The notes under the pieces: model-generated | Seen by the model: the letters and a program-made list of their open reading frames with translations, nothing else | Database searches by the model: none | Told to the model about the DNA's origin: nothing | Position numbers and translations under genes: made by a program | Assembly: GCA_000004695.1 (NCBI GenBank) | Contig: CM000151.3 | Coordinates: forward strand, 1,632,001 to 1,696,000 | DNA length: 64,000 bases | From: Dictyostelium discoideum | Lineage: Eukaryota | Reading direction: 5' to 3' | Shown: in pieces, positions 4,769-31,847 of the stretch | Position numbering within the stretch: position 1 is the stretch's first letter | Layout of the letters: the number at the start of each line of letters is the position of its first letter

Positions 4769-6963
<2,195 letters not shown>

Positions 6964-12731: not shown

Positions 12732-13438
12732 TTAGAGATAGTTTGCTAACCACCTGAAACCTTCAGCATAACCGTATCTCTTTACAACACTACACATAAA
12801 TACTTCAATTGGTCTAACACCATTGAGTGTAGTTTTACCTTTACCTGTAGTTTGAGTGAGACCTAATGATGCTCTGAATTTCTCTTCTGATGTATTACCA
12901 ATATCAACTTTATTACCAAGAATGAGGAATGGAACATTTGCGAGTTCATCTGATGATAAAAGTGAATCTAATTCTTTCTTTGATTCAACAAATCTATCTT
13001 GAGCTGATGAATCAATTAAATAAACAATAGCATCGACTGATGGATAATAATCTTTCCAAAGTCTACGAGCTGACTCGTGACCACCTAAATCGAATGCTTT
13101 AAATCTAATATTACCCATTGCTAATTCTTCTGAAGCTGTTTTTTAAAAAAAAAAAAAAAAAAATTAAAAATTAAAAATTGTTAATATTAAATTTATTTTT
13201 ATATATAAAGAAAAAAGAAAAAAAAAAAAAAAAACTATGTAGTTCATAGAGTTGATATTTACTTGGATGGAAAGTTGGAAGATATGAAGAAAGACGACCA
13301 TCTTTTAATACACCAAGGAGTGTAGTTTTACCTGCATTATCTAAACCTAAAAATAAGATTTTGGCATTCTTATTGTAGAGACCTATTGTTGTTTTTAAAT
13401 AAAATAAGATTTTAGAATATTATCATCACCATTATTAC

Positions 13439-14886: not shown

Positions 14887-16400
14887 TTAAACAGATAATT
14901 TAGTTAATTTATCTAAAGCACCAAAACCTTTTTCCATGTATTCAGCTTTGGTAATCCAGAAATCATCACGATCCTTGGTAAGATCAGCCAAGACAGCACC
15001 ACCGAGGAAAACCATGTGCTTTCTTCTTGGTGGATCTTCGATTCTGCATTTGAATTTAGCGAGACCTTCTTTGTTTCCTTTTAATACACGTTCCAAATAG
15101 AGAGATCTAATTTCCTTTTCGAGACGAGATGGTAAACCTGGATACATAGAGGAACCACCAGAAAGGACGATATGTTGATAGAAACCTTGTTGAAGATCAC
15201 GGTCTGCCTTGGTGATACAATCAAACAATTGTTCATGGACACCACCACCTTCGACATCGACCAAAGATGGATTGAAGAGGGCTTCAGAGGCTTGGAATCT
15301 CTCTTGGCCAACTTTGATTACACGACCGTCTGGGAGGGTGTAGTTTTCGACGAGAACAGTGGTCTCTGAGGCCAATTTCATCTCTTGTTGAACATCGTAT
15401 GCGACATAACAGAGTTTCTCTTTGATTTGACGGATGGTTTCGAAATCGGCGGTACGATTGAAAGCGTAACCACGGAGTAATAATAATTTGATGAGGTAAC
15501 GAGTTACATCACGACCGGCAACATCGAGACGACGAGTCAAATGTGGGATTGAGTAACCCTCATAGACTGGAATGATATGGGTGACACCATCACCTGAATC
15601 TACGACAACACCAGTCAAGAGACCTTGAGCATAGAGTGTGAGTACGGCTTGAATTGCTACGTAAACTGCTTGGAATCCATACTTTTCAAACATACATTCA
15701 ATCATTTTTTGACGATTTGCAACTGGATTCATTGGTGGTTCGGTCAAGAGGATCTTGCATTCAGTTGGATCACTAACTTTTAATTTCTCTTTAAGTGCAT
15801 AGTCCCATACGTGTGTAATATCATCCCAATTACGAATGATACCATTTTCCAATGGATAGGTGATTTGTAACATTGATCTTAATTTGGCTGCTTCATCACC
15901 AACCATAATATCTTTAATCTCTACATTTTCTACCTTTTCTTCTGAACGTAAAATTGGTCTACCAACCATTGATGGAAAAATGGCTGTTGGGAAATTTGCA
16001 CCTGCAAAACCACATTTTACAAACTAATAAAAAAAAAATAAATAAATAATTTTAAAAAAAAAAAAGTTGAAAATAAGTTTTTTTTTTTTTTTTTTTTTTT
16101 TGTGTGTTTGAAATATTTGATGTTCATATTTTTTTTTTTTTTTTTTTTTTTAATAATAAATTTAAAATAATATTAATTAGTATTCAAGTTTTATTATTAT
16201 GAAAATAAAAAAAATATATAAATTATTGAAATTTCATTGTGTATTTGAGATTTTTATTTTTTTATTTTTTTATTTTTTTTATTTTTTTTGAAGTTGTGAT
16301 GTTGATTATTTTATTATTATTAATAAATGAGTGAAGTTATTATAATTTTTCAACTTACACCAGTACCATTATCCATAACGATAACTTTATTTGAATCCAT
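14887..16400 (-). CDS. arpB: Actin-related protein 2 (Arp2, Arp2/3 complex subunit). Model: join(16400..16359,16023..14887), about 392 aa
   Basis: Exon 1 encodes [14 protein letters not shown] followed by donor GTAAGT. Exon 2 begins [31 protein letters not shown]... This matches the Arp2 N-terminus ([42 protein letters not shown]). The acceptor is TTATTAG at 16024. The rest is the ORF-track 360-aa piece, with actin-fold motifs throughout. Confidence 0.85.
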
Positions 16401-19017: not shown

Positions 19018-19783
19018 ATGATGTCAAATGTGGAAACTAAAACACCAAATTGGAGATTCAATCCAAAAACTTCAGAACCTGATATATCAGAAGATGGACT
19101 AGATATTGTAGATTCAGGTAAAAACAAGGCATGGACAACAGCTATAGCATCAGATATATCAATAAATAGACAATCCAATACATTATATTATTATGAAATT
19201 AGGGTTAATTTTTGTAATGTTTCAAATTCAATTAAAATTGGTATGTACTATTTATAATAATTTATAATAATAGTAATAATAATAGTAATATTAATGATAA
19301 GTATAATTATAATTTTTAAAAATTCTAGTATTTGGTATAATGGGAGAGAATTATATGACAAGGATATTATCAATAACACGTGGTTTAGTTGGTAGTTTAA
19401 AAGGGTCATGTCCATATGGATATTATCCAGATTTTGGTATTGGTACTCTATGTTATTTTGCAAATGGTTCCATTGTTAGGGATGGTGTATCGTTGGCTGA
19501 AAAAGCACAAAGTTATACAACAAATGATCGAATAGGAATGTTGGTTGATACTTGCAATAATTCAGTAGCATTCTTTAAAAATTCACAACTTCAAACTTCT
19601 TTTATTAATATTTATAATAGTTTTCAATCTTCAAATAATCGTCAACAACAACAACAACAACCAACTGTAAATTCAAACAATAACACCACCACTAGCACAA
19701 CCACTACCACCACCACCACCACCACCACAAATTCAACATCATCACCATCATCGTCTTTAGCATCTTTAAACAATAACAACAAC

Positions 19784-19818
<35 letters not shown>

Positions 19819-20935
19819 ACCAAGTAAACCTCTTTTAATTTTTCCTTCAGTTTCATTAATTAAAGAAAATGCTATTTCAATCATTGATAATCCAACTATA
19901 CCTACATTTGACTATGAGGATATTATAGCTAGAACTATGAAACAAATGAAGTTGTCAGAACAATCAAAAGCAGATCCACCAAAAACAGCAACAACAACAA
20001 CGACAACAACTACTGCAACTACAAAAACACCAGCAAATACCCCAACACCCCCTAAACCATTACCACCACCAACAGCATCATCATCATCACCACCAAAGAA
20101 ATCACCTGTAAATATTAGCAACACCACCACCACCACCACCACCACCAATAATAATAATAATAATAATAGTAGTAATCCTAAAACTCCAAATGGAAAAGAA
20201 GGTGGATTACCAGATCTAAATAATAACTGCCCAGTTTGCGGTATTTCATTTAAATCTATTGGAAAGGATTGGCCATCAATTAATAAACATATCGATGAAT
20301 GTTTAACCTTTAATTTATTGGATAAAGAGACATTAGAGTAAGTAATAGTAGTAGTAGTGGCAGCAGACATCTTTAATATACTGACAACAAAATACCTTTT
20401 ACCAGAAATTTTCATAACTAACTTTTTTAATTTTTTATTTTTAAAATTTAATAGTCCAAAAGCCAAATCAACAACTATTAAATGTCCTTACAGTGGATGT
20501 AAAAAGTCAATGACAACAGTAGAATTTATAAATCATTGTAATGAAAAGCATTTGCTAGACGATGTTCATAATTATAAGTGTCCTTTATGTAATGAAAAGG
20601 TAATTTATTATATTTTTATTTTTATTTTTATTTCCAAGATTTCCCCAGATTTTAACACCTATTTTTTTTTTTTTTTTTTTTTTTTTTTACAGTCACCAAA
20701 TTTAATTAGCCATCTAAGTAAAACACATATAAGGGTTCAACAAAAACAAGTTGGTGTTGGTTATTCAACAAGTGTACTTGAAAATGATTTAAGTGAAGAT
20801 ATTGAATGTCCAATTTGTCTTGAAGAGTTCACAAAAGGTCAAAATGTGGCCCGTTTAGAATGTTGGTGCATATTTCATACAAATTGTATTTCTGAATATT
20901 TATTAAAATCAAAGAAATGCCCAGTCCATAATTAA
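19018..20935 (+). CDS. SPRY-domain, UBZ4-type and C2H2-like zinc-finger, C-terminal RING-H2 protein (putative E3 ubiquitin ligase). Model: join(19018..19240,19329..20337,20455..20599,20693..20935)
   Basis: The SPRY/B30.2-like core is split by intron 1 (...NTLYYYEIRVNFCNVSNSIKIG | VFGIMGENYMT...YGYYPDFGIGTLCYFANGSIVRDG...IGMLVDTCNNSVAFFKNSQL). The UBZ4-like motif is CPVCGISFKSIGKDWPSINKHIDECL. Exon 3 encodes KCPYSGCKKSMTTVEFINHCNEKH...KCPLCNEK and exon 4 the RING-H2 motif CPICLEEFTKGQNVARLECWCIFHTNCISEYLLKSKKCPVHN. Introns are GTATGT/TCTAG, GTAAGT/AATAG and GTAATT/TTACAG, with phases consistent. Confidence 0.65.
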
Positions 20936-23024: not shown

Positions 23025-23308
23025 ATGAGTAACGCACTTCCACTTGATGAATGGGTAGAGACTGCACGTCAATGCAAATATTTACCAGAAAATGATTTAA
23101 AGAAACTTTGTGAAAGAGTTAAGGAACTTTTATTAGAAGAATCAAATGTACAACCAGTTAGAAGTCCAGTTACCATTTGTGGTGATATTCACGGTCAATT
23201 TTATGATTTATTAGAATTATTCAAAACCGGTGGTGAAGTACCAGATACAAACTATGTTTTCATGGTAAGTTGTTTTTTTTTTTTTTTAATGTGTAGGATC
23301 GATTACTA

Positions 23309-23360
<52 letters not shown>

Positions 23361-23666
23361 TCTTTTTTTTTTTTTTCTTTCTTCTCCTTTAAATAGGGTG
23401 ATTTTGTCGATAGAGGATATTACAGTTTAGAAACATTTACATATTTACTTGCACTCAAAGCTAGATACCCAGATAAAATTACATTATTAAGAGGAAATCA
23501 TGAAAGTAGACAAATCACACAAGTTTATGGTTTTTATGATGAATGCCAACAAAAATATGGTAATGTAAATGCTTGGAAATATTGTACAAGTGTTTTCGAT
23601 TTCTTAACTTTAGCTGCTGTAGGTTTTTTTTAAAAAAATAATTTCTATTTTTAATAATTTCTATTT

Positions 23667-23697
<31 letters not shown>

Positions 23698-24236
23698 TAA
23701 CTTTTTTAAATCTAACTTTTTTATTTTTTTATTTTTTATTTTTTTTTTTATTATTATTTATTTAAAATTTCTACCTTTAGATTATTGATGGTAAAGTACT
23801 TTGTGTTCATGGTGGTTTATCACCAAAAGTACGTACTTTGGATCAAATTAGAATTATTTCAAGAAATTTAGAGATTCCACATGAAGGTCCATTCTGTGAT
23901 TTAATGTGGTCAGATCCAGAAGATATTGAACAATGGCAACCATCACCAAGAGGTGCAGGTTGGTTATTCGGAAGTAAAGTCACTGCAGAGTTTGAACATA
24001 TCAATGGTCTTAACCTCATTTGTCGTGCTCATCAATTGGTACAAGAAGGTTATAGATATATGTTTGATAATAGTTTAGTCACTGTTTGGTCTGCTCCAAA
24101 CTATTGTTATAGATGTGGTAATGTCGCTTCCATCCTTTCACTCAATGAAAACTTGGATAGAGATTTCAAAATTTTCCAAGCCGTTCAAGAAGAAAGAAAT
24201 ATACCAACTCGTCCAACTATGCAATATTTCTTTTAA
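23025..24236 (+). CDS. ppp6c: Serine/threonine protein phosphatase 6 catalytic subunit (PP2A-like PPP family, Sit4/PPP6C type). Model: join(23025..23264,23397..23618,23781..24236), 306 aa
   Basis: The N-terminus [74 protein letters not shown] is near-identical to human PPP6C. The [14 protein letters not shown] and [21 protein letters not shown] motifs are in exon 2, and [11 protein letters not shown] is in exon 3. Introns are GTAAGT/AAATAG and GTAGGT/CTTTAG, both phase 0. Confidence 0.85.

Positions 24237-26684: not shown

Positions 26685-31847
<5,163 letters not shown>

Follow-up and report, generated by a model that had tools for sequence, protein, structure and literature searches.

A dictyostelid RING-type E3 ubiquitin ligase candidate in which a SPRY domain is joined to a widespread UBZ4-Di19-RING module related to ZNRF1/2

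In the stretch of 64,000 nt of Dictyostelium DNA analysed here (the window), three open reading frames that lie close together on the forward strand (19018..19257, 19340..20341 and 20357..20935) raise the question of whether they belong to one gene and, if so, which type of protein this gene encodes. A sequence-only reading had proposed that the list of open reading frames splits one spliced four-exon gene into three, and both parts of this proposal are borne out: the region 19018-20935 (+) is a single four-exon gene, with 1620 nt in frame and a protein of 539 amino acids (Table 1). All three introns are GT..AG introns which restore the reading frame, and their GC content is 10-23%, compared with 28-32% for the exons. 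The dictyostelid orthologues, including those of D. purpureum, Polysphondylium violaceum, Acytostelium subglobosum and Synstelium polycarpum, confirm all three splice junctions as well as both ends of the protein (start MMSN/MISN, end CPVHN), and in at least five orthologues the sequence runs on collinearly through every junction, with a full-length identity of 45-64%. Unrelated open reading frames, or a decaying pseudogene, could also resemble one gene, as might be suggested by the three separate entries in the list and by the exact spliced protein being missing from a 15-billion-sequence collection, when queried by exact look-up in an index that seems to be without the source species; a word-indexed search of the same collection gives one match for the C-terminal half and none for the N-terminal half. 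Such an artefact is highly improbable and is effectively refuted already by the canonical, AT-rich introns that restore one frame, by the collinearity of the orthologues and by the intactness of every zinc ligand. In the literature on Dictyostelium SPRY/RING/UBZ or ZNRF proteins, nothing is found on this gene.

Table 1. Exons, introns and predicted domains of the gene. Positions are coordinates in the 64,000-nt window, and residue numbers (aa) refer to the spliced 539-aa protein.
Feature	Position	Strand	Description
Exon 1	19018..19240	+	aa 1-74 plus 1 nt; start codon and N-terminal part of SPRY; orthologues start MMSN/MISN and are continuous across SIKI/VFGIM
Intron 1	19241..19328	+	88 nt, GTATGT..TAG, 10% GC; within the SPRY domain
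Exon 2	19329..20337	+	aa 75-410; remaining SPRY, low-complexity linker, UBZ4 finger
Intron 2	20338..20454	+	117 nt, GTAAGT..TAG; junction DKETL/DPK, compared with DKETSDPK in D. purpureum
Exon 3	20455..20599	+	aa 411-459; Di19 finger 1 and Cys pair of finger 2
Intron 3	20600..20692	+	93 nt, GTAATT..CAG, T27 tract; splits Di19 finger 2; junction CNEK/SPNLISHLSK kept in orthologues
Exon 4	20693..20935	+	aa 460-539 plus stop; His pair of Di19 finger 2, pre-RING linker, RING, TAA
SPRY domain	19051..19891	+	about aa 12-262, spans intron 1; motifs W-x-W/F-x-P, KAWTT, YYYEI, NSIKIVFG, NDRIGM, FFKN, [IL][FY]P[SA]VSLI
Species-specific poly-Q/T/N insertion	19631..19831	+	aa 176-242, 67 aa, loop before the last SPRY strands; (CAA)n, (ACC)n, (AAT)n microsatellites
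UBZ4-type C2HC finger	20228..20305	+	aa 375-400, CPVC-x16-HIDECL; C375, C378, H395, C399; P376-V377 and D397 are predicted ubiquitin contacts
zf-Di19 domain	20474..20728	+	aa 418-471, spans intron 3; C2H2 fingers C421/C426/H438/H443 and C453/C456/H466/H471
Pre-RING linker	20729..20806	+	aa 472-497, conserved, ..VGVGYSTSVLENDLSEDIE, ends with Glu497
ZNRF-type RING	20807..20929	+	aa 498-538; C498, C501, C516, C518, H521, C524, C535, H538; ends CPVH, one residue before the stop

When checked against the Pfam SPRY model (PF00622, gathering score 26.3 bits), the window protein itself stays under the cutoff, with 20.1 bits, or 23.1 bits without the low-complexity insertion, whereas two orthologues score above it (P0002, 29.9 bits; P0003, 26.7 bits) and a third below (P0004, 22.8 bits). 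The insertion is missing from all orthologues, and on its removal the match extends to profile positions 2-113 of 121. The profile of the orthologue SPRY domains matches the SPRY structures of RanBP9/10, with E-values of 6.5e-7 to 3.8e-4, and these are the closest solved structures; outside the orthologues, the closest relative is an amoebozoan F-box+SPRY protein, P0154 of Planoprotostelium, matched at 6e-16 in a 5.8-billion-sequence database. Structures were predicted for the orthologues P0003 and P0001, as stand-ins for the window protein. In a Foldseek search with the model of P0003, 39 of the 40 best matches are SPRY domains (E-values down to 3e-6); this full-length AF2 model, built from five sequences, is of low confidence (pLDDT 44.5) and is used as weak support only. 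As far as these profile comparisons indicate, the SPRY domain is real, despite the sub-threshold Pfam score of the window protein, and its core is interrupted by intron 1 as had been claimed, with the break at codon 75. Matches of residues 71-162 to GST-pi entries of the PDB (E-values 1e-3 to 3e-2) are chance matches: they are weaker than the SPRY matches, all come from one protein and are contradicted by the Pfam SPRY calls of the orthologues and by the fold search.

The C2HC finger further downstream is more strongly conserved than any other segment of the protein, with 36 of its 38 residues (95%) identical in D. purpureum, compared with 64% for the SPRY domain, and the positions of its C-x2-C...H-x3-C zinc ligands are invariant in 49 family fingers. 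A family profile of the finger matches the UBZs of Pol kappa (4e-11), RAD18 (2e-8), WRNIP1 (5e-5) and FAAP20 (0.05), and when the single finger is used alone, the best PDB matches are the UBZs of Pol kappa, RAD18 and WRNIP1 (0.006-0.8). In the RAD18/WRNIP1 class, ubiquitin is contacted by a Pro-Val pair of the knuckle and an Asp of the helix (PMC4370504), and by this criterion P376-V377 and D397 correspond to Pro21-Val22 and Asp37 of WRNIP1. Judged by its sequence, the finger is therefore a genuine UBZ4 finger of the RAD18/WRNIP1 class, with predicted ubiquitin contacts. This is in agreement with the sequence-only reading, apart from the spacing, which had been given as CPVCx(17)H and is actually C-x2-C-x16-H-x3-C, such that the loop is five residues longer than the x11 loop of RAD18. 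Block-shuffled windows, read in six frames, contain the pattern C-x2-C-x9-20-H-x3-C 0.09 times per window, and 0.02 times when the H-x-D-x-C-L tail is included. A second C2HC motif of the window, near 5766 on the minus strand, belongs to a separate RING-TRAF-MATH gene and is a finger of the TRAF type, not a UBZ.

Between the UBZ finger and the RING, a single C2H2-like finger had been noted; its C2H2 nature stands, but two such fingers are present, together forming one zf-Di19 domain. The Pfam zf-Di19 model (PF05605, gathering score 27.5 bits) gives 38.1 bits with the full protein and 44.4 bits with its C-terminal half, the match extending over profile positions 2-53 of 54, and the orthologues score 25.0-46.2 bits. 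A similarity of the first Di19 finger to the FOXP coiled-coil/zinc-finger region is generic C2H2 likeness.

The C-terminal RING is matched by the Pfam zf-RING_2 model with 37.6 bits (cutoff 27.3). It had been read as a RING-H2; the C-terminal RING is confirmed, but it is not a canonical C3H2C3 RING-H2, because ligand 4 is a cysteine (C518) and ligand 8 is a histidine (H538). The ligand order C-C-C-C-H-C-C-H is the signature of ZNRF1/2, and the corresponding C-x-C-x2-H...C-x2-H pattern is common to 138 of 151 family proteins. ZNRF1 is the best match of the RING in both sequence and structure, and is its closest solved RING, with about 36% identity. Glu183, Leu188 and Glu189 of ZNRF1 contact Ube2N (PMC5941314), and these residues correspond to E497, L502 and E503 of the window protein (...DIE-CPIC-LEE...); in an alignment of the family, the Glu before the first RING cysteine shows at least 90% conservation. 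The pre-RING linker aligns with LSYNDDVLTKDAGE of ZNRF1. In the E2-binding helix, the dictyostelid orthologues have Tyr or Phe where most of the family has Trp. The AF2 model of the orthologue P0001 is confident for the UBZ-Di19-RING cassette (pLDDT 84-97). A match to the Pfam UBZ_FAAP20 model (E-values 0.0015-0.08) is irrelevant to the UBZ finger, because what it covers is the first pair of RING cysteines.

Could the zinc fingers have a purely structural role, such that the C2HC and Di19 fingers support the RING, or bind poly(ADP-ribose), nucleic acid or a partner, in a SPRY-RING ligase with a zinc scaffold? In ZNRF1, the contribution of the zinc finger to E2 binding is small, its main effect being to stabilise the RING, and the Di19 region of RNF166 has been linked to poly(ADP-ribose) recognition (PMC10937711). 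In addition, no Pfam model calls the C2HC finger of the window protein as a UBZ, and the helix position is an Asp in just 43 of 98 family fingers, being lost in animal ZNRF1 (MHFIMC). Nevertheless, the dictyostelid finger retains both ubiquitin-contact elements, the P-V pair and the D, besides being so well conserved, and it is poorly placed as a simple buttress of the RING because it lies about 95 residues upstream, with the Di19 domain in between. A scaffold of this type is therefore considered unlikely.

The family was collected by an exhaustive HMMER search seeded with the orthologue P0001, and about 150 best matches were examined. UBZ, Di19 and ZNRF-type RING occur in that order in 47 of these matches, from Amoebozoa and unnamed protists, whereas a SPRY domain ahead of this cassette is found, among the same best matches, in Dictyostelia only, where the SPRY-UBZ4-Di19-ZNRF-type RING architecture is conserved. 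The domain combination had been called unusual; this holds for the SPRY part, but UBZ, Di19 and RING form a widespread conserved cassette. The dictyostelid protein is thus a lineage-specific variant, in which a SPRY domain is joined to an old and widespread UBZ-Di19-RING module that is related to ZNRF1/2. The protist cassette proteins (for example, P0008 of Gocevia fonbrunei, P0015 of Endostelium zonatum, P0043 of Clydonella and many metagenomic sequences) have the UBZ4 finger, the two-finger Di19 domain and the ZNRF-type RING with identical order and motifs, at 30-40% identity to the cassette of P0001. They differ at the N-terminus: some have no module there, some begin with MG, which may indicate myristoylation, and others carry a CCCH finger or a winged helix resembling that of eIF2D; no SPRY domain is found among those examined.

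Animal ZNRF sequences (P0092, P0119 and P0134) fall within the same HMMER family, and their fingers score higher with the UBZ HMM than with the Di19-2 HMM. When compared with ZNRF1/2 (PDB entry 5ywr, the C-terminal domain of ZNRF1 with Ube2N), the window protein has the same RING ligands (C-x2-C...C-x-C-x2-H-x2-C...C-P-x-H), the same E2-contact residues (the Glu before the first Cys and C-x-I-C-L-E-E), the same linker motif ([GS]-Y-x3-V-L-x2-D) and a CP[IV]C...H-x3-C-L finger upstream of the RING. ZNRF1/2 differ in being N-myristoylated, membrane-bound proteins of about 230 residues, without SPRY and Di19 domains; their only finger lies directly next to the RING and no longer has the Asp of the helix. 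In the window protein, the UBZ4 signature is complete and the finger that adjoins the RING is a C2H2 finger of the Di19 domain, which separates the C2HC finger from the RING. The protein is a cassette-sharing relative and not an orthologue of ZNRF1/2, because it starts with MMSNVE, without Gly2 and hence without the Met-Gly myristoylation signal, and has 539 residues with a SPRY domain. The fungal FYVE-UBZ-RING proteins of the Pib1 type (those examined include P0058 of Chytridium lagenaria, P0088, P0094 and P0105) also have a ZNRF-type RING after a CP[VI]C...H-x3-C finger, but they lack the Di19 domain, and their targeting relies on FYVE, a lipid-binding domain, in place of SPRY. By sequence, both the animal ZNRF1/2 and the fungal FYVE-RING proteins look like shorter relatives.

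Other E3 families share single elements with the window protein. The E3s with Di19 fingers (RNF114/RNF125/RNF138/RNF166 and KCMF1) have the reversed order, with the RING first and a UIM last, another RING subtype, a UIM instead of a UBZ reader and no SPRY, and there is no evidence of orthology. Coupling of a SPRY receptor to an E3 catalytic module is also seen in TRIM proteins, RSPRY1, RNF123, FBXO45/SPSB and RanBP9/10 in CTLH/GID. TRIM proteins have the layout RING-B-box-coiled coil-PRY/SPRY, and RSPRY1 and RNF123 are SPRY-containing E3s. In the window protein, the order is reversed, with the SPRY domain N-terminal and the RING C-terminal, there is no B-box match in Pfam and no coiled coil, and the RING subtype differs.

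UBZ4 is usually read as a DNA-repair mark, and a role in genome maintenance had been suggested. In that case, the ligase would be recruited by its UBZ4 finger to ubiquitylated chromatin or to marks of the PCNA type, in the same way as RAD18, WRNIP1, Pol kappa, FAAP20 and FAN1, and the RING would extend K63 chains with Ubc13-Mms2. The finger belongs to the RAD18/WRNIP1 class by sequence, with its contact residues intact; damage tolerance also uses Ubc13-Mms2 as E2; and Di19-type fingers are present in ligases of the RNF138/RNF166 type, the C-terminus of RNF166, including its Di19 domain, binding poly(ADP-ribose) (PMC10937711). On the other hand, the similarity with RAD18, WRNIP1 and Pol kappa (the C2HC ligands, the CPVC knuckle and the [IV]NKH[ILV]D-x-CL helix) is confined to the finger of about 30 residues, and the rest of the protein is unrelated, without SAP, RAD6-binding, AAA+ or polymerase regions. 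The protein is not a RAD18 orthologue, given its other domain order, with the RING C-terminal, and a Pfam search with E-values up to 10 gives no match to SAP, BRCT, PIP or another repair-linked domain in the window protein. Moreover, in the family for which this same UBZ appears to be ancestral, the members that have been characterised (ZNRF1/2 and the Pib1 type) act at endosomal/lysosomal membranes, and ZNRF1/2 and the Pib1-type FYVE-RING proteins are described as cytoplasmic or membrane-associated partners of Ubc13 in PMC5941314, PMC4889327 and bioRxiv 10.1101/575241. Since UBZ4 appears to belong to the ancestral equipment of a large family of cytoplasmic E3s as well, its presence by itself should not be taken as a genome-maintenance signal. 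The suggestion is an analogy that rests solely on the repair roles of other UBZ4 proteins; a genome-maintenance role is neither supported nor excluded, and is regarded as improbable.

The reading that is considered probable is that this expressed-type four-exon dictyostelid gene encodes a modular RING E3 of 539 residues, recruited by its SPRY domain, reading ubiquitin and acting with Ubc13 and/or UbcH5-type E2s. The earlier description as a ubiquitin-binding E3 ligase is a reasonable one, because the spliced gene has SPRY, UBZ4 (from profile matches and contact residues), C2H2 and RING domains. The SPRY beta-sandwich would be the receptor of a substrate or partner; the same type of receptor appears to be plugged into a different E3 scaffold, because its closest relative among non-orthologous proteins is located behind an F-box. 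The UBZ4 finger would bind ubiquitin via the Pro-Val knuckle and the helix Asp, and may either dock the ligase on already ubiquitylated targets or keep the acceptor ubiquitin in place while the chain is extended. The Di19 fingers may buttress the RING, as the zinc finger of ZNRF1 does, or add a ligand-binding surface. The RING would recruit and activate E2~Ub, with Ubc13-Uev (K63 chains) as the favoured E2, because the residues for high-affinity binding of Ube2N/Ubc13 by ZNRF1 are kept (the Glu before the first Cys and C-x-I-C-L-E), whereas E2s of the UbcH5 type could serve for priming. This preference is extrapolated from ZNRF1 at the identity given above. It agrees with bioRxiv 10.1101/575241, where Ubc13-Mms2 is the E2 with which fungal Pib1 and human ZNRF2 function, and for which Pib1 and related proteins serve as cognate E3s; however, ZNRF1/2 and the Pib1 of S. 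pombe bind E2s of the UbcH5 family as well, which counts against a Ubc13 preference. Having neither the myristoylation glycine of ZNRF1/2 nor the fungal FYVE domain, the protein is expected to be soluble, and its targeting would depend on SPRY and not on lipids.

It is possible, as a more tentative extension, that UBZ4, Di19 and ZNRF-type RING constitute an ancient E3 cassette of eukaryotes that has no name yet and whose N-terminal targeting module can be exchanged. Dictyostelia would carry SPRY in this position and fungi FYVE, animals and some amoebae would rely on a myristoyl anchor, and other protists would have a winged helix or a CCCH finger. ZNRF1/2 would then be reduced derivatives that lack the Di19 domain and the ubiquitin-binding Asp, and the dictyostelid protein would be the first soluble substrate-receptor form, with UBZ4 reading ubiquitin, and Di19 possibly poly(ADP-ribose), on SPRY-bound clients, and with K63 extension by Ubc13. 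If the main reading given above is right, Dictyostelium would offer an experimentally accessible, soluble member of the ZNRF/Pib1 family, whose ligases partner with Ubc13; in this member, a protein-recognising SPRY domain replaces the lipid anchor in targeting and the canonical UBZ4 signature is retained. This would reveal the original role of the poorly understood zinc finger of ZNRF1/2 and would show how K63 ligases pair a ubiquitin reader with a substrate receptor. For ubiquitin specialists the architecture may hold little surprise, domain shuffling being frequent among E3s. The orthologues are already deposited as hypothetical proteins or under the automatic name "RING-type E3 ubiquitin transferase".

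The gene at 19018-20935 (+) is conserved and intact, and it encodes a protein with a SPRY domain, a UBZ4 finger, a Di19 domain and a ZNRF-type RING. The mechanical ORF list divides this region into three ORFs (19018..19257, 19340..20341 and 20357..20935), which the sequence-only reading had taken to be pieces of a single gene. This is borne out, as canonical splice sites join the three ORFs into 1620 nt in one frame, coding for 539 residues, and the orthologues are collinear. The four-exon model is more than plausible because five orthologous proteins are uninterrupted in the alignment across all three junctions (SIKI/VFGIM, DKETL/DPK and CNEK/SPNLISH), and both ends, the N-terminal MMSN/MISN and the C-terminal CPVHN, are shared. 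The introns have a GC content of 10-23%, as compared with 28-32% for the exons. Antisense ORFs, for example 19912..20466, are of low complexity and mirror the runs of Thr/Asn codons. The whole window is very rich in AT (10-15% GC in the intergenic stretches, about 30% in the coding blocks) and its coding regions include poly-Asn/Thr/Gln tracts, which together are the signature of a dictyostelid genome.

Exons and introns of the gene model
Feature	Position	Strand	Remarks
Exon 1	19018-19240	+	gene model
Intron 1	between 19240 and 19329	+	88 nt, GTATGT..TAG
Exon 2	19329-20337	+	gene model
Intron 2	between 20337 and 20455	+	117 nt, GTAAGT..TAG
Exon 3	20455-20599	+	gene model
Intron 3	between 20599 and 20693	+	93 nt, GTAATT..CAG
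Exon 4	20693-20935	+	gene model

Collinear orthologues are found in Dictyostelium purpureum (XP_003285576, 444 residues, 64% identical), Polysphondylium violaceum, Acytostelium subglobosum (XP_012754997), Synstelium polycarpum (a truncated model) and a metagenomic dictyostelid. They come from an exhaustive HMMER search that started from P0001, the sole close relative found first, and from a profile search; a word-indexed search had overlooked three of them (P0002, P0003 and P0004). The exact 539-residue protein is absent from the collection of 15 billion sequences, where the closest relative is 64% identical and sister species are represented; the collection seems not to include the proteome of the source species itself. 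The orthologues are deposited as hypothetical proteins or under the automatic name "RING-type E3 ubiquitin transferase", and literature searches on the gene and its orthologues found no paper.

The SPRY domain of the window protein scores 20.1 bits with the Pfam model, below the gathering score of 26.3, and 23.1 bits when the low-complexity insertion is deleted, in which case the match spans profile positions 2-113 of 121. Four lines of evidence, each independent of the others, settle the assignment. The orthologues P0002 and P0003 (the D. purpureum protein) score above the Pfam cutoff (29.9 and 26.7 bits). The four best PDB matches of the profile of the orthologues' N-terminal half are the SPRY domains of RanBP9/RanBP10 (E 6.5e-7 to 3.8e-4), a match that extends over the N-terminal W-x-W-x-P...LS..L.V...G.GK extension. 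The closest non-orthologue among 5.8 billion sequences is an F-box protein of Planoprotostelium fungivorum (E 6e-16), to which precomputed Pfam assigns a SPRY domain and which has the motifs KAWTT, YYEIKI, NSI.IVFG, NDRIGM, FFRN and LYPAVSLI in common with the window protein. Finally, although AlphaFold models the D. purpureum protein poorly (pLDDT 44.5), 39 of the 40 best Foldseek matches to that model are SPRY domains (E down to 3e-6), including those of RanBP9/10, Gid1, Ash2L, TRIM9/67, DDX1, HERC1 and RyR. Intron 1, at codon 75, lies inside the domain, as had been proposed. Residues 71-162 (about 19228-19590) weakly match glutathione S-transferase pi in the PDB (about 20 bits, E from 1e-3 to 3e-2), a similarity judged to be due to chance, although it recurs over the SPRY core with the orthologue profile.

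The insertion of Gln/Thr/Asn at residues 176-242 (19631-19831) occurs in this species only, being absent from every orthologue in the alignment, and it lies in a loop preceding the last SPRY strands (..KPLLIFPSVSLIKENAISII). In-frame coding microsatellites at 19631-19831 and 19980-20176, among them (CAA)6, (ACC)15 and (AAT)15, encode poly-Q/T/N. The presence of this block inside the SPRY fold shows that a β-sandwich loop tolerates repeat expansion in this genome.

The finger has the motif C375-P-V-C378-x16-H395-I-D-E-C399-L, with a spacing of x16 and not x17 as first read; in shuffled sequence the chance rate is 0.09 such motifs per window, falling to 0.02 when the H-x-D-x-C-L tail is required. 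No Pfam model calls it, and the Pfam UBZ_FAAP20 match falls on the RING. Compared with the PDB at E up to 10, the isolated 46-residue finger has 13 matches, including both Pol kappa UBZs, the RAD18 UBZ and the WRNIP1 UBZ, the top three being Pol kappa and RAD18. A profile of 49 homologous fingers matches Pol kappa (4e-11; both fingers are individually significant), RAD18 (2e-8), WRNIP1 (5e-5) and FAAP20 (0.05), and generic C2H2 arrays fit it over the CPxCGKSF half only. In WRNIP1, Pro21-Val22, between the first cysteine pair, contact Ile44 of ubiquitin, and the helix residue Asp37 provides the polar contact of this UBZ class (PMC4370504); their counterparts here are P376-V377 and D397. The finger is also the most conserved region when compared with D. 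purpureum (36/38 identical, as against 78% for the RING and 64% for SPRY). These profile matches and retained contact residues uphold the RAD18/WRNIP1 class proposed earlier; we accept the finger as UBZ4 at the sequence level, and it would be expected to bind ubiquitin.

What had been read as a single C2H2-like finger is a pair of fingers making one Di19 domain. RNF114/125/138/166 and KCMF1 have Di19 fingers too, and a C-terminal part of RNF166 that takes in its Di19 domain is reported to bind poly(ADP-ribose) (PMC10937711). Similarly, the RING (ligands C498, C501, C516, C518, H521, C524, C535 and H538) is of the ZNRF type instead of RING-H2, as ligand 4 is a cysteine and ligand 8 a histidine, with the protein terminating one residue beyond (CPVHN). 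This is exactly the ligand pattern of human ZNRF1 (LPCLCIYHKSC...CPEH), which is the best PDB sequence match (5ywr_B, E 2.3e-11, in an alignment that takes in the last finger and the RING) and also the best Foldseek match. In the ZNRF1-Ube2N crystal structure, nanomolar affinity needs Glu183 (before the first cysteine), Leu188 and Glu189, and the ZnF of ZNRF1 stabilises its RING (PMC5941314). The counterparts of these three residues are E497, L502 and E503 (..DIE-CPIC-LEE..), and the glutamate before the first RING cysteine is at least 90% conserved in the 68-sequence family alignment.

Among the best 151 of the 871 matches of the exhaustive HMMER search, the ZNRF-type ligand pattern is present in 138, an upstream CP[IV]C...H-x3-C finger in 98 (43 of these with the helix Asp), a Di19-type first finger in 62, a FYVE signature in 19 and a Met-Gly start in 18. 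UBZ, Di19 and RING occur in that order in 47 of the best approximately 150 of 871; the named carriers of this cassette are the other Amoebozoa Gocevia, Endostelium and Clydonella, and the remainder are metagenomic or transcriptomic. A chytrid has a FYVE-UBZ-RING form. Animal ZNRF1/2 also fall among these best matches, and since their finger scores higher with the UBZ HMM than with the second-Di19-finger HMM (e.g. 18.9 vs 12.4 bits), this suggests that they are the same cassette minus Di19. The SPRY profile matches the dictyostelid orthologues and the Planoprotostelium F-box protein and nothing else, so that the fusion of SPRY to the cassette is, within these searches (best 150 of 871 inspected), specific to Dictyostelia. 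Seven relatives (P0011, P0014, P0025, P0028, P0029, P0038 and P0056) have a weak N-terminal match to an eIF2D-like winged helix (PF25304, E 3e-5 to 3e-3), and two UBZ(-Di19)-RING relatives (P0008 and P0015) combine a CCCH finger with a Met-Gly start; both appear to be arrangements of this cassette that are as yet undescribed. Two other proteins (P0006 and P0047) score highly in the representative search only from summed matches to 4-9 tandem canonical RING-H2 domains and are unrelated to it.

It is probable that the SPRY domain brings in a client protein and that the RING activates E2~Ub, while the UBZ4 finger would hold the ubiquitin of a primed client or of a growing chain and the Di19 fingers would steady the RING or supply a further binding surface. 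Ubc13-Uev would be the favoured E2, with UbcH5-type E2s possible, since the residues that touch Ube2N are retained and both ZNRF2 and the Pib1-type ligases of fungi support Ubc13-Mms2 (bioRxiv 10.1101/575241). With neither Gly2 nor a FYVE domain, the protein is expected to be soluble. This SPRY-recruited, ubiquitin-reading RING E3, with Ubc13-Uev favoured, is a reasonably probable mechanism overall; within it, the domain architecture and an E3 role have a much higher probability than the whole, and there is less certainty about which E2 is used and whether ubiquitin is read. A role in genome maintenance, as suggested by the sequence-only reading, would fit the RAD18/WRNIP1 class of the finger and the additional damage-tolerance role of Ubc13. 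However, RAD18 is no relative of this protein, whose domains stand in another order and in which the Pfam scan found no SAP or RAD6-binding region, the finger is ancestral to a family whose studied members act at endosomal or lysosomal membranes, and nothing in the analysis points to the nucleus; such a role is therefore improbable. The domain observation is confirmed, with the spacing, Di19, RING type and SPRY insertion corrected, and its interpretation is partly supported. The protein is a lineage-specific SPRY-fusion variant of a known ligase kind, uncharacterised and unsurprising; of greater interest is a side result, the widespread and unnamed UBZ4-Di19-RING cassette, which links protist proteins to ZNRF1/2 and to fungal FYVE-RING ligases.

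The neighbouring ORFs, as named by translation only, resemble an exon of a Sar1/Arf-type small GTPase (12732-13118, -), an actin-related protein (14887-15969, -; 41% GC peak at 15-16 kb), an intron-split PP2A/PP4-type phosphatase catalytic subunit (23025-24236, +) and a 1720-residue protein with a TPR-like C-terminal region (26685-31847, +). These four seem to be unrelated housekeeping genes without operon-like context. A separate multi-exon gene at 4998-6789 (-), its domains likewise named from translation, looks TRAF-like: one end carries a RING (..HECPQCRCSL), the TRAF-type zinc fingers (CPFRPIECSFCKSEFTFYSIKDHETNCDFKLVECNQCK..) come with a very long run of Asn, and the C-terminus, in ORF 4998..5417, resembles MATH. 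Its C2HC motif is the sole other match to the UBZ-like regular expression within the window.
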